A stretch of DNA of 4,397 nt from a virus (IMGVR_UViG_2548876698_000016), one strand, 5' to 3'; positions 1,004 through 3,762 are shown, numbered from the stretch's first letter. Numbers and translations: made by a program. Notes: generated by a model from the letters alone, not told the origin.

Positions 1004-1094
1004 GGATATATAGTGATGAGGGTTATGTTTTCTGTGTTTATAATTAACATGTTTATTTTTTGATGGTCATGTATTGTGGAAGGTAGATAAAATG

Positions 1095-1123
1095 TTGCCT
1101 GGTGAATTGAAAATATTGATAAT
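1095..1123 (+). promoter_or_regulatory. Candidate sigma70 promoter in the Q-downstream intergenic region (TTGCCT -17- GATAAT); possible late promoter or cargo promoter
   Basis: -35-like TTGCCT at 1095-1100, a 17-nt spacer, and -10-like GATAAT at 1118-1123, about 30 nt upstream of the CPBP start. A perfect TATAAT also occurs at 1039-1044 but has no good -35. Prediction is from sequence only. Confidence 0.3.
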
Positions 1124-1154
1124 CAATCTTCATCATTAAATAAAAGGAGTGCTT

Positions 1155-1973
1155 ATGTGGATTGTGTTAGTACTGTCACTGTCAACTCTCAGTTGGCATA
1201 AGGTAGTGGCTTTTTCATTGTTGACGGTGTCTGTTGTCCTGGCTGTGCTTAATGATATTATTGATTGGTCGGTGTTATTTTTTGTTGCTACAATCGTTTT
1301 TTTTATTATTTTGAAGTTCAACTGGAAATATAACGCCTGGGCTAAATCTATATATGAAGTTGGCATAGTTTTATCAGCCATAGCATTATTTTTCCATCTA
1401 TGGCCAGGGTTTCACAATCCTGTAGTGCTAAATTCTGTTACTGTTGGCCCTCAAAGTACTCCCTATACAATGTATTTTAATTTTGATAAAGCGCTGGTGC
1501 CATTTTTGTTAGTCCTGTGTACATCTTCTTTGTTTAAAAAAGAAGTAAAATCAGAAGTGTCTTTGTGGAAGTGGGGGGCTCTGTCGCTCTCTGTTCCTCT
1601 TATCCTGTTTTTGGCTGTTTTTTTTGGTGGATTAAAGCCAGAGATTCATTTTCCTGAGTGGTTGCCAGAGTTTATATTGGCTAATTTGTTTTTTGTGTCT
1701 CTGGCAGAGGAATCATTATTTAGAGGGTATATTCAATCACGGCTATCAGAAGTAACGTCTCCATTGGTTGCATTAATTGTGGCGGCTTTGTTGTTTGGTT
1801 TTTATCACTATTCAGGTGGTGCTTTACTTGTATTATTTGCCACGTTATCTGGTGTTGTGTATGGATTGTCATGGATGTGGAGTGGGCGTTTGTGGGTTGC
1901 CACCCTTTTCCATTTTGGTTTGAATCTGTGTCACTTGTTATTCTTTACCTATCCATTTTTAAAACATAATTGA
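1155..1973 (+). CDS. CPBP family intramembrane glutamic metalloprotease (CAAX protease / Abi-domain, PF02517-like), polytopic membrane protein
   Basis: ATG 1155 preceded by AAGGAG (1144-1149); the ORF track starts at in-frame GTG 1149. The 272-aa product is very hydrophobic with about 8 predicted TM segments. All three CPBP catalytic motifs are present in order: EExxxR (AEESLFRGY), FxxxH (FGFYHY) and HxxxN (HFGLNL). The gene is T-rich and clearly lower in GC than rusA/Q. Stop is TGA 1971-1973. Confidence 0.8.
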   Translation: MWIVLVLSLSTLSWHKVVAFSLLTVSVVLAVLNDIIDWSVLFFVATIVFFIILKFNWKYNAWAKSIYEVGIVLSAIALFFHLWPGFHNPVVLNSVTVGPQSTPYTMYFNFDKALVPFLLVLCTSSLFKKEVKSEVSLWKWGALSLSVPLILFLAVFFGGLKPEIHFPEWLPEFILANLFFVSLAEESLFRGYIQSRLSEVTSPLVALIVAALLFGFYHYSGGALLVLFATLSGVVYGLSWMWSGRLWVATLFHFGLNLCHLLFFTYPFLKHN

Positions 1974-2113
1974 TTTTTTCTATGGTTTTAAATTTATAAG
2001 ACTGAAAAATAGCAGGACGTGACATTTGCATGAAAAATATGCACGGCAAAGCATTTACGTACGTAAAAAATCAGGTATGCTGTTAAGAGTGGTTATTTCG
2101 CCGCATAGCTTGA

Positions 2114-2259: not shown

Positions 2260-2499
2260 ATGCTGAAACAGCAGGATATGACAGAAACCGCCAGAGTTGT
2301 GTTTGATGAATTAAGCGTCACCGAACCGGCGACGGTCGGGGAGATTGCGCAGAATACGTACCTTTCACGCGAGCGCTGCCAGTTAATACTGACCCAGCTG
2401 GTTATGCGGGTCTGGCAGACTATCAGTTCGGTTGTTACAGACGCCTTCAGTCCTGAAGGCTTTTTTATTTGTGGTAAATGGGCGGCTGGTGGGTGTTAG
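2260..2499 (+). CDS. Hypothetical small protein (79 aa) with a possible helix-turn-helix segment; coding status uncertain
   Basis: ATG 2260 follows a purine-rich stretch (GGAAAGGG, 2243-2250); an alternative ATG is at 2278. The segment ATVGEIAQNTYLSRERCQLILTQL looks HTH-like. GC is higher than the flanking AT-rich spacers. Caveat: a canonical terminator hairpin plus T-run (2443-2466) lies inside the last 19 codons, so the true 3' end or the coding status is in doubt. Confidence 0.4.
   Translation: MLKQQDMTETARVVFDELSVTEPATVGEIAQNTYLSRERCQLILTQLVMRVWQTISSVVTDAFSPEGFFICGKWAAGGC
2443..2466 (+). terminator. Canonical intrinsic terminator (7-bp stem, 4-nt loop, T6) located inside the 3' end of the 79-aa ORF
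   Basis: GCCTTCA (2443-2449) pairs perfectly with TGAAGGC (2454-2460) around loop GTCC, followed by TTTTTT (2461-2466) and ATTT. Confidence 0.5.
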
Positions 2500-2527
2500 C
2501 GGCACCTGTCAGTCCTTTGCTTATGTG

Positions 2528-2558
2528 TTGATGATAATTTACCTTTTGGGGCTATAAT
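2528..2558 (+). promoter_or_regulatory. Candidate sigma70 promoter for the AraC-family gene
   Basis: Perfect -10 TATAAT at 2553-2558 with -35-like TTGATG at 2528-2533. The spacer is 19 nt, which is longer than optimal. It lies about 35 nt upstream of ATG 2594 in an AT-rich spacer. Confidence 0.3.
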
Positions 2559-2593
2559 TGAGCTAACCAATTGCTAATGAAAGTAAAATTATA

Positions 2594-3307
2594 ATGGCTG
2601 TTGTCTGTTCAGTTATCATGGTTTGCTCCCCAATTAATATTTTTCTTGAAAAGGATACGTTGTCACTTAAGCCCGGCTCAGTCGTTCTGGCCACCAAATG
2701 CATCAGGGCGCTTTTCCTTATGCATTATGGCAAAGTTAAAATTTTCGATATAAACCATTCCATAGTAAGTCAATATCTGGAAATTCAGCATAAGCTGACA
2801 AGAACTCATCTGACTGACGTTCCGCTTTATCTGTCACTGGAACCCAACAACCCTGCGTTGGCTGAGGCTTTAATTACCAGCCAGAGATTTTCCGGAGATA
2901 CCACGGATATGTTTCTTATGATGGCATGCCTGTCGCTGTTTGAATCAGATGAACGGATATTATTATTTTTAAGTGGATGTTTATCCAGTATAAGTGCCAA
3001 AGTCAGGGCGATAATTCAGACAGATATATCAGCAAGCTGGACGCTTGGTGCGATTGCGTTACGCCTGCATATGAGTGAGAGTTTGTTAAAGATAAAACTG
3101 AAAAATGAAGGGCACATGTTCAGTCGCTTGTTGCTGGAAGAGCGGATGCGTGTTGCTGTCAATATGTTATGTTCCCGGCATGGATATGGACAGGCTGTAG
3201 CAGAAAAATGCGGTTATTCAAGCTGGTCCTACTTTATTTCTGTATTTCACCGCTATTATGGCTTCCCGCCAGACAGATATGTATCCAGGCAAGGGCTTGA
3301 TTATTGA
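2594..3307 (+). CDS. AraC/XylS-family transcriptional regulator, YdeO/AppY/GadX-like subgroup (prophage-encoded)
   Basis: The 237-aa product has a C-terminal AraC-type double HTH (WTLGAIALRLHMSESLLKIKLKNEGHMFSRLLLEERMRVAVNML...AEKCGYSSWSYFISVFHRYYGFPP). The N-terminus MAVVCSVI... resembles the M-x-x-VCSV start I recall for YdeO and AppY, which supports ATG 2594 as the start despite a weak Shine-Dalgarno. The gene is AT-rich. Stop is TGA 3305-3307. Confidence 0.8.
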   Translation: MAVVCSVIMVCSPINIFLEKDTLSLKPGSVVLATKCIRALFLMHYGKVKIFDINHSIVSQYLEIQHKLTRTHLTDVPLYLSLEPNNPALAEALITSQRFSGDTTDMFLMMACLSLFESDERILLFLSGCLSSISAKVRAIIQTDISASWTLGAIALRLHMSESLLKIKLKNEGHMFSRLLLEERMRVAVNMLCSRHGYGQAVAEKCGYSSWSYFISVFHRYYGFPPDRYVSRQGLDY

Positions 3308-3335: not shown

Positions 3336-3411
3336 GGCCCTTTAGCTCAGTGGTGAGAGCGAGCGACTCATAATCGCCAGGTCGCTGGTTCAAATCCAGC
3401 AAGGGCCACCA
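3336..3411 (+). tRNA. tRNA-Ile2 (anticodon CAU, lysidine type; ileX/ileZ-like)
   Basis: A 76-nt cloverleaf folds cleanly: acceptor GGCCCTT/AAGGGCC, D-arm GCTC...GAGC, anticodon loop CTCATAA (CAT at 3369-3371), T-arm GCTGG-TTCAAAT-CCAGC, discriminator A and encoded CCA. It is near-identical in architecture to E. coli ileX as I recall it, including the C4:G69 and C5:G68 pairs used by TilS, so Ile2 is favoured over Met. Confidence 0.88.
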
Positions 3412-3418
3412 TCACATA

Positions 3419-3495
3419 CCGCCATTAGCTCAGCCGGACAGAGCAATTGCCTTCTAAGCAATCGGTCACTGGTTCGAATCCAGTACAACGCGCCA
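3419..3495 (+). tRNA. tRNA-Arg (anticodon UCU)-like gene; acceptor stem anomalous, possibly a degenerate or pseudo-tRNA
   Basis: D-arm (TA-GCTC-AGCCGGACA-GAGC), anticodon arm (ATTGC-CTTCTAA-GCAAT, TCT at 3453-3455), 5-nt variable loop, T-arm (ACTGG-TTCGAAT-CCAGT) and 3' GCCA are all canonical. However, the presumed 5' acceptor strand (CCGCCAT, 3419-3425) is not complementary to the 3' strand (ACAACGC, 3485-3491) in my hand fold, so the boundaries and functionality are uncertain. Confidence 0.6.
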
Positions 3496-3509
3496 CACTT
3501 ATTTTCCCT

Positions 3510-3535: not shown

Positions 3536-3732
3536 AAATGTCTCACAATTCAGGCGGTTGACTGTTGTCTGGTTTGCGGGGAGTTTGTTAAAAGAAACTG
3601 GCATGGTGAATCCCCCTGTGCGGAGGGGCAATCAGCGAGTAGGTATATGGGATAATCGCGGATTCAGGTGCTGGTACTGAATTCACCGGGAGGCACCCGG
3701 CACCATGCAATGGCACATAGCGCCACTCTCCA

Positions 3733-3756
3733 GCCCCTCTCCGGAGGGGCTTTCTT
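3733..3756 (+). terminator. Terminator-like hairpin (plus-strand orientation) in the tRNA-to-nanS intergenic region
   Basis: 7-bp stem GCCCCTC (3733-3739) / GAGGGGC (3744-3750) with loop TCCG, followed by TTTCTT (3751-3756). The U-tract is imperfect. Confidence 0.45.
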
Positions 3757-3762
3757 ATGGAC

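Follow-up and report, generated by a model that had tools for sequence, protein, structure and literature searches.

The 6S RNA of phage lambda is a short RNA made from the late promoter pR'. In Shiga toxin (Stx) phages, pR' is constantly active in the lysogen and most of its transcripts are stopped at the terminator tR' (PMC7547250). Late operons can also contain morons, which in the account of Juhala et al. 2000, as cited in PMC4104026, are units of promoter, gene and terminator inserted in the operon. A terminator placed a few bp after a gene, as was done with lambda tR2 in a reporter, is almost fully repressed by the ribosome (Li et al. 2016, PMC4824070). Here we describe an overlap of gene and terminator in a 4,397-nucleotide (nt) stretch of viral DNA (IMGVR_UViG_2548876698_000016), which is referred to as the window. 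The element in question is an open reading frame (ORF) on the plus strand, 2260-2499, which starts with ATG, encodes 79 amino acids (aa) with the C-terminus ...FFICGKWAAGGC and stops at TAG 2497-2499. A sequence-only reading of the window had pointed to a hairpin followed by six T residues (2443-2466) inside this ORF, 31 nt before its stop codon, and asked whether the ORF is mis-called or the region specifies an attenuator or a small RNA. Hairpin and T-run are indeed found at these positions, and the end of the ORF is read from the terminator and the sequence downstream of it, with T6 forming codons 68-69 (FF) and 10 codons following. Our analysis indicates that the region is very probably a piece of conserved lambdoid late-operon backbone with a lineage-specific lesion, in which a frameshifted gene runs past the native stop codon that sits in its terminator hairpin.

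The 79-aa ORF is a frameshift product

A prophage of Escherichia coli O157:H7 shares 99.8% identity with the window, and the RefSeq annotation of the matching O157:H7 stretch was converted to window coordinates. The O157:H7 equivalent of 2260-2456 is annotated there as a pseudogene, 'TrmB family transcriptional regulator, frameshifted', so a frameshifted pseudogene as the answer is not new. Alignment to phages phiP27 and SfV showed that one G is gone between 2406 and 2407, turning ATGGCG into ATGCG. The window and the O157:H7 genome read GTTAT-GCGGGT at this site where phiP27 and SfV read GTTATGGCGGGT; written from the ATG on, this is ATG-CGGGT in the window versus ATGGCGGGT in the two phages. 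The 49 codons before the deletion (MLKQQDMTETARVVFDELSVTEPATVGEIAQNTYLSRERCQLILTQLVM, 2260-2406) are intact according to a phrog_331 match, the alignment to phiP27 L23 and SfV orf47, and the ratio of nonsynonymous to synonymous substitution rates (dN/dS). After the deletion, the alignment and the end of the RefSeq pseudogene place a remnant of the native C-terminus (AGLADYQFGCYRRLQS) out of phase at 2407-2456, with the native stop TGA at 2454-2456. The tail made by the frameshift (RVWQTISSVVTDAFSPEGFFICGKWAAGGC, 2407-2499) crosses the hairpin, the T-run and the start of a conserved leader, and its stop TAG falls in the loop of the following hairpin. When one G was put back in the window, the frame ended ...LVMAGLADYQFGCYRRLQS at TGA 2454-2456, which forms the first three bases of the hairpin 3' arm. 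The shift costs the protein 16 native C-terminal residues, namely everything after LVM including the conserved C-terminus AGL..YQFGCY..RL, and adds 30 unrelated ones. Of the three earlier proposals, the use of a different frame or start came nearest, since the called frame is real up to 2406 and only from there on does the other phase, leading to TGA 2454-2456, take over.

To follow the deletion among E. coli genomes, a 91-nt probe over it was used, and 343 of the 1960 matching records contained it exactly. Among the matches listed, the other E. coli alleles had 92 nt with one exception (row H78), and all exact-match rows belonged to O157:H7 or un-serotyped strains. An intact 65-aa gene is present in an O111:NM prophage that is 98.5% identical and has the same CPBP and AraC-like neighbours, and also in an O104:H4 prophage that shares the AraC-like neighbour. 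Across 272 sequences (271 loci and the window), the 79-aa tail was absent outside the window and its O157:H7 counterpart. The lesion is therefore real and clonal. It follows that the 79-aa ORF results from a frameshift and is in all likelihood a pseudogene; it was not built to carry a terminator at its end, and an ordinary cause accounts for the odd overlap. The same form is present on at least 1000 public contigs, where it was called as 'hypothetical protein' or 'lipoprotein', and these calls can be corrected as a mis-called ORF.

The intact small gene is under purifying selection

The homologues of the small gene, which include phiP27 L23 (NP_543075; 65 aa, ending ...LVMAGLADYQFGCYRRLPQ) and SfV orf47 (NP_599079; 64 aa, ending ...RRLQQ), make up PHROG 331, a family present in many Enterobacterales prophages, with proteins of 63-67 aa that end ...AGLADYQFGCYRRLQS. 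The phrog_331 profile matched the 79-aa form with E = 5.7e-32 and the intact form with E = 1.4e-37, and 327 protein clusters are related to the family. The homologues come from Escherichia, Salmonella, Klebsiella, Kluyvera, Citrobacter, Buttiauxella, Mixta, Mangrovibacter, Providencia and other genera, and 28 diverse ones were compared in a coding test. Column entropy at codon positions 1, 2 and 3 was 0.54, 0.46 and 1.19, and the median pairwise dN/dS was 0.12, with values below 1 in all 218 informative pairs. The small gene is truly coding and its intact form is under purifying selection. The best-conserved stretch of the protein is RCQLILTQLVMAGL, and the frameshift lands within it. These values, together with the absence of any Rfam family in 2260-2499, speak against the earlier suggestion that the frame is non-coding and the region specifies a small RNA.

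The family is inconsistently called in databases, at lengths of 53-110 aa that reflect upstream starts, partial sequences and frameshift tails. Of the 111 positions in the PHROG 331 profile, the 79-aa product covers 35-110, suggesting that frameshift-type tails went into the profile.

The hairpin at the stop codon is conserved independently of the protein

The intrinsic terminator of the small gene (2443-2466, plus strand) was recognized by terminator scan, RNA folding and conservation. It consists of GCCTTCA (2443-2449), the loop GTCC (2450-2453), TGAAGGC (2454-2460) and T6 (2461-2466), followed by ATTT, so that the stem is a perfect 7 bp with 4 G-C pairs. The RNA fold has an energy of -10.5 kcal/mol and z = -3.84, and none of 200 dinucleotide shuffles was as stable. 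The minus-strand copy of the hairpin precedes GTCTGTAACA, which is not T-rich, and the terminator is therefore one-directional. Since the window contains 14 terminator-like sites versus 4.7 +/- 2.3 in shuffles, any single site could be due to chance, but this hairpin is not, because it is conserved in homologous stop regions. Across about 265 loci the stop region came in 69 distinct versions, and we scored a region as terminator-like if a stem of at least 5 bp with at least 3 G-C pairs overlapped the stop and at least 5 T occurred in the next 10 nt. By this rule 60 of the 69 stop regions were terminator-like, compared to 0-10 of 69 for control windows in the same genes. In the homologues, the native stop is either in the loop (e.g. 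GCCTCCA-GTAA-TGGGGGC) or where the 3' arm begins.

Pairing is kept in 27 distinct stem variants, for example GCCTTC/GAAGGC, GCCTCC/GGAGGC, GCTGCCA/TGGCAGT, CCGCCAG/CTGGTGG, TGCCTG/CAGGCA and CTCCGC/GCGGAG. In a plain MAFFT alignment, 5 of 6 pairs had changes on both sides. Some hairpin variants are misaligned by MAFFT, so that the pairing of helix 1 (89%) is an underestimate, and a register-free hairpin search was run beside the covariation analysis. The hairpin is under selection independently of the protein. The sequence-only reading had called it a strong intrinsic terminator structure, a description that the fold, the T6 and the homologous stop regions all bear out. It had also proposed that homologues would tell whether the reading frame or the hairpin is the conserved element; the comparison itself was informative, while the choice between the two was not, as both are conserved, the frame by its dN/dS of 0.12 and the hairpin by its compensatory changes. 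The documented conservation and co-variation of this stop-in-hairpin ending seem to be new. A separate G+C-rich hairpin of at least 5 bp without a T-run is found about 120 nt before the small-gene stop (window ~2310-2365) in 60 of the 69 variants, and it may just reflect conserved codons (GAACCGGCGACGGTCGGGG).

The small gene follows a tR'-like terminator

Upstream of the small gene, co-variation with Q type points to a putative pR' and Q-utilisation (qut) region at 2054-2092 (plus strand). The candidate promoter has the -35 hexamer TTTACG (2054-2059), a 16-nt spacer and the -10 hexamer TATGCT (2076-2081); the hexamers match at 8 of 12 positions, under the scan threshold of 9/12, and the promoter-proximal element GTTAAGAGTGG follows at 2082-2092. 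The scan identified a tR'-like terminator on the same strand at 2115-2136, with the arms CCCGC and GCGGG, the loop CTCTGA, T6 and a fold of -9.0 kcal/mol. This hairpin is homologous to the 'putative rho-independent terminator' annotated just after Q in SfV and is kept in nearly all loci. The 60-80 nt before it fall into three sequence classes that track the Q type. The AACGATGGG class accompanies a long SfV-type Q (62 of 63 loci). The TAAGAGTGG class, to which the window belongs with GTTAAGAGTGG, accompanies the short Q of the window and phiP27 (67 of 79 loci) and in no case an SfV-type Q, and the third class pairs with neither. AACGATGGG is identical to the promoter-proximal pause element of lambda. 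Even within one class, Q and the small gene are ~200 to 1900 nt apart because cargo is inserted between Q and the promoter-proximal block (window 1004-2092 with the block included), namely CPBP in the window and a GIY-YIG nuclease in phiP27, and Q and its presumed target site can be up to ~1.9 kb apart. As the block varies with Q type in the way that Q-specific late control would, 2054-2136 is assigned as a putative pR'/qut/tR' region.

Between tR' and the small gene lies a conserved 5' untranslated block, CTTGCTGG-N-CAAGAGTTATTGGTGTGTCACGTTAACC (2198-2250 with the ribosome-binding site), which is near-invariant across genera, as is the ribosome-binding site GGAAAGGG itself (2243-2250). No sigma-70 promoter-like site was found in this interval in the window, phiP27 and a Kluyvera locus. 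Most simply, the small gene is the first gene of the late transcript. The 5' block proper (2198-2242) reads TGCTG-N11-CCAGAGTTATCTGTRTGTCA in most loci and CTTGCTGGCTTTTTCGACAAGAGTTATTGGTGTGTCAC in the window, and is unlike a sigma-70 promoter.

A conserved leader and a methyltransferase gene usually follow the terminator

Downstream sequence was long enough at 252 loci, and at 237 of these a leader and a gene for a DPPY DNA methyltransferase come after the terminator. The leader is non-coding, extends from AATGGGCGGCTGGTGGGTG to GCTTACTGATCTATG and measures 129-135 nt, mostly 132; full copies are present in many Enterobacterales genera, for example at L002 2912-3045, L006 3213-3345 and about 235 other loci. 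The enzyme after it is a beta-class, M.EcoGII-type methyltransferase of ~350 aa. In phage 1720a-02, the order is Q, small gene, methyltransferase and stx2A. Its methyltransferase is 'very similar' to the non-specific adenine methyltransferase M.EcoGII, which is silent in the host lysogen and harmful under constitutive expression (Murray et al., PMC5778455).

The leader has very high sequence identity. Its predicted helices are 97-100% paired with few compensatory changes, and covariation support is modest because the sequence hardly varies. The helix GGUCACAAGC / GCUUACUGAUC covers the sequence before the methyltransferase start, where there is no obvious Shine-Dalgarno sequence and GATC precedes the start codon. 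No Rfam family matched the leader, the ORF 2260-2499 or the terminator at E <= 1 in the window and six related loci, and the weak leader matches in related loci were at the upstream tR' region, below threshold. A hidden ORF as the cause of the conservation was rejected, as no consistent ORF was found on either strand. The first leader hairpin (2484-2514 in the window) contains a plus-strand Chi site GCTGGTGG (2485-2492). Chi occurs in this hairpin in 202 of 213 distinct regions (stop +27/28), and 127 of the 213 have a second Chi on the same strand before the small gene (start -89/-91). The window keeps only the downstream one, its upstream site (2169-2176) being degenerate, GCTGGTAG. We reason that Chi in this orientation should act on RecBCD that enters from the lysis/cos side. 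Chi is not the sole constraint at the Providencia locus L022, because there it is lost and the hairpin is kept via compensatory changes.

The window departs from this arrangement. Homology to methyltransferase-type loci ends at ~2530, leaving the first ~60 nt of the leader with Chi (2470-2530, plus strand) as a remnant. It is followed by an AT-rich AraC-like cassette (2531-3307, plus strand) with a promoter-like site at 2531-2558 (ATGATA-16-TATAAT, 10/12) and a gene at 2594-3307. The cassette stands in place of the methyltransferase and two-thirds of the leader in O157:H7, O111 and O104:H4 prophages. We found no description of the conserved leader, which has no Rfam family, and the tight module of the small gene, an M.EcoGII-type methyltransferase and this leader seems to be new. 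Only a stump of that module remains in the window. The leader may explain the silence of M.EcoGII-type enzymes in their hosts.

Proposed mechanism and rival explanations

The frameshift, the purifying selection on the intact gene and the selection on the hairpin are directly supported by the comparisons above. How the parts work together is proposed as follows. In the lysogen, pR' would fire constantly and tR' would halt most transcripts, as happens in lambda and the Stx phages (PMC7547250), and transcription that leaks past tR' without Q would be stopped by the hairpin that closes the small gene. After induction, Q-modified polymerase would pass both terminators. The second barrier would matter because the next gene is usually of the M.EcoGII type and harmful in a lysogen, with stx2 beyond it in some phages. 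In the window's prophage, the methyltransferase and most of the leader would have been replaced by the AraC-like cassette with its promoter-like site. The small gene of the O157:H7 prophage would have decayed, and the terminator and the first leader hairpin would be relics crossed by the shifted frame. For the window itself this means little beyond the correction of a mis-called ORF. In several Shiga-toxin phages (phiP27, 1720a-02 and others), though, the intact module is located between the late promoter and stx2, and an extra conserved terminator there bears on how tightly toxin and methyltransferase stay off in lysogens.

Several observations weigh against this reading. The role of the hairpin as a second late-operon terminator, with termination at 2466 and read-through by Q-modified polymerase, is predicted from sequence. 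Two loci (L013 and L014) keep the stem without a T-run and the Providencia locus L022 has no hairpin at the stop, so the hairpin may have another or an additional role. A terminator so near the stop is expected to be repressed by the translating ribosome, which weakens a simple barrier role. The 79-aa ORF is called on at least 1000 contigs and retains its ribosome-binding site, and its product may still be made despite the frameshift. The intact protein scored 18 bits with Pfam TrmB (PF01978) compared to a gathering threshold of 25.6, and the AlphaFold model, with a predicted local distance difference test (pLDDT) score of 70.7, had no winged-helix match. The 79-aa form had no TrmB match, other winged-helix Pfam families reached 12-15 bits on the same residues, and a profile search of PDB sequences with the small protein was empty. 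The model has three helices in helix-turn-helix order, and the PHROG category of the family is 'unknown function'. The 'TrmB' label is weakly supported, and the small protein is possibly DNA-binding.

Other readings of the overlap were considered. The hairpin might be a translation-dependent attenuator, in which a ribosome finishing the small gene blocks hairpin formation and termination occurs only when the gene is untranslated or ribosome and polymerase are uncoupled. Such a device would gate the downstream methyltransferase or, in the window, the AraC-like gene, and ribosomes on the frameshift allele would cross the terminator and could raise read-through. It may also be an add-on to the backbone arrangement proposed here. 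Several findings are compatible with it: about 60 of 69 variants place the stop codon in the loop or the 3' arm, ribosome repression of a terminator a few bp after a gene is near-complete (PMC4824070), small gene and methyltransferase are tightly linked (237/252 loci), and the methyltransferase start has no obvious Shine-Dalgarno sequence and shows predicted pairing to the upstream leader. We nevertheless consider it rather unlikely, since in place of a short leader peptide with regulatory codons there is a conserved protein (65 aa, 63-67 aa in the family, dN/dS 0.12), and the wider fold offers no convincing antiterminator structure, the outer helix 2432-2477 having z = -1.05. Moreover, Q-modified polymerase should ignore the terminator anyway, the AraC-like gene has a promoter-like site of its own, and an overlap of stop and terminator is also simple space saving in phage genomes. 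A more far-reaching and quite improbable idea is that the small gene, the terminator with the stop in its hairpin and the ~132-nt leader belong together as a control cassette, so far undescribed, for the M.EcoGII-family methyltransferase, which would keep this toxic non-specific adenine methyltransferase silent in lysogens and turn it on late. Translation of the small gene would then suppress the terminator, with the leader RNA gating translation and the small protein acting in trans as the controller; the O157:H7 frameshift would have a regulatory effect, with ribosomes crossing the terminator and entering the leader hairpin, and read-through into the AraC-like gene could rise. If the hairpin served chiefly in RNA stability or processing, or as the first helix of the structured leader after it, this would account for the stems without a T-run at L013 and L014, for the interrupted T-runs (TTTCTGCTGT) of many other variants and for sequence conservation that runs unbroken into the leader. 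Such a role is doubtful all the same, if less so for the variants lacking a T-run, as the E. coli class including the window has T5-T9 after the stem in classic terminator form, and a hairpin with a T-rich tail is present in 60 of 69 variants compared to 0-10 of 69 controls.

The remaining alternatives concern the ORF. As a genuine functional O157:H7 protein with a novel C-terminal tail, the 79-aa product would explain why the allele is fixed in 343 complete genomes and called as a protein on at least 1000 contigs, with start codon, ribosome-binding site and the first 49 residues undamaged. Clonal descent is sufficient for the allele frequency, however, and the tail, confined to the window and its O157:H7 counterpart among the 272 sequences, comes from a hairpin, a T-run and a non-coding leader, the last of which is conserved as nucleotides and not as codons. 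With the near-invariant AGL..YQFGCY..RL segment lost through the shift and the locus a pseudogene in RefSeq, a functional protein is very improbable. Equally remote is a non-coding small RNA of ~200-400 nt that ends at the terminator and to which the ORF is incidental. In its favour, an RNA that escapes tR' would have its 3' end at 2466, short RNAs such as StxS arise in Stx phages from pR', which is constitutive in lysogens (PMC7547250), and prophage late regions contain many small RNAs (PMC4104026), STnc100 at 3572-3762 among them. Against this stand the clear coding signature in homologues, an Rfam search of 2260-2499 that stayed empty up to E <= 1, the absence of a promoter belonging to the segment itself, and the position of known prophage small RNAs between the inserted cargo gene and the esterase gene. 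Finally, the lost base belongs to a GG doublet, a common type of sequencing or assembly error, but error was rejected because the deletion is identical in 343 independent complete genomes. Programmed ribosomal frameshifting was rejected as well, with no slippery heptamer at 2400-2410 and no conservation of the shifted-frame tail among homologues; both explanations are almost certainly wrong.

Other features of the window

The window is the late-control region of a lambdoid prophage. In the RefSeq annotation, the end of a DUF968 gene at the 5' edge is followed by RusA (271-642), the Q antiterminator (623-1003), a CPBP membrane endopeptidase (1149-1973), the pseudogene, the AraC-like helix-turn-helix gene (2594-3307, plus strand), tRNA genes and a sialate esterase gene from 3985, the tRNA genes lying between the AraC-like and esterase genes. 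The GC content is 0.475-0.525 across 2101-2500 and 0.32-0.42 in the flanking CPBP and AraC-like genes, which agrees with the higher-GC patch noted in the sequence-only reading. Its view that the patch is a separately acquired piece has to be reversed. The patch (~2040-2530, from pR' to the first ~60 nt of the leader) is shared phage backbone and the AT-rich CPBP and AraC-like neighbours are inserted cargo, since the patch is common to phiP27, SfV and ~270 other loci and the AT-rich neighbours vary by locus.

Downstream of the AraC-like gene, the tRNA at 3336-3411 has the anticodon CAT and is named tRNA-Ile in RefSeq. The window has 90 nt fewer at 3412-3500 than O157:H7 strain TT12B, which equals the spacing of two tRNA-Arg genes that are here fused into one hybrid. 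ARAGORN made no call on the hybrid, and Rfam gave a partial match (48.9 bits, model positions 7-64). A full-length Rfam match to STnc100 was found at 3572-3762 on the plus strand (138 bits, E = 1.8e-31), faced by a strong convergent minus-strand terminator at 3791-3770 (GCCCGCG...CGCGGGC-T7). Similar convergent pairs of small RNAs have been described where cargo is inserted in O157 prophages (Tree et al., PMC4104026), and a 2026 preprint links STnc100 to PasD. StxS, AgvB, AsxR, Esr41, STnc100 and the Pas RNAs were tried as identities for the segment 2260-2499 and rejected, as they are positioned elsewhere or start at pR'.

Comparison with known systems

The locus resembles lambda-type late control in having Q upstream (623-1003), a Q-type-specific block with a terminator ~50 nt downstream, and one more intrinsic terminator that late transcription would have to cross. 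It differs in the CPBP cargo between Q and pR' and in the predicted pR'-tR' RNA of ~50 nt, compared to 258 nt for StxS (PMC7547250). For the window's phage type, all of these elements are predicted from sequence. Like a moron, the small gene stands between terminators in the late operon beside cargo (CPBP, AraC-like), but it has no detected promoter of its own, its GC content is backbone-like, and it is kept across three Q/pR' families and behaves as backbone. The moron reading was rejected after a promoter-like site had been sought between tR' and the small gene in three loci and none was found.

By analogy only, the small protein recalls the controller (C) proteins of restriction-modification systems, being small, possibly of the helix-turn-helix type, encoded upstream of a methyltransferase and tightly linked to an enzyme that is harmful when expressed untimely. 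Unlike with C proteins, the methyltransferase is an orphan phage enzyme without a partner nuclease, and neither a sequence or fold match nor operator repeats were identified. With the terminators of Li et al. 2016 (PMC4824070), the hairpin shares a stop codon within reach of the ribosome footprint; there lambda tR2 was moved in a reporter, whereas here the overlap is natural, conserved and seen in sequence. The closest relatives are phiP27 L23 and SfV orf47, with which the window's gene shares the first 49 residues, the whole protein after one G is restored, the position directly after a tR'-like terminator and the stop-in-hairpin ending. The window copy differs from both in being frameshifted to 79 aa and in its next gene, which is AraC-like instead of the methyltransferase.

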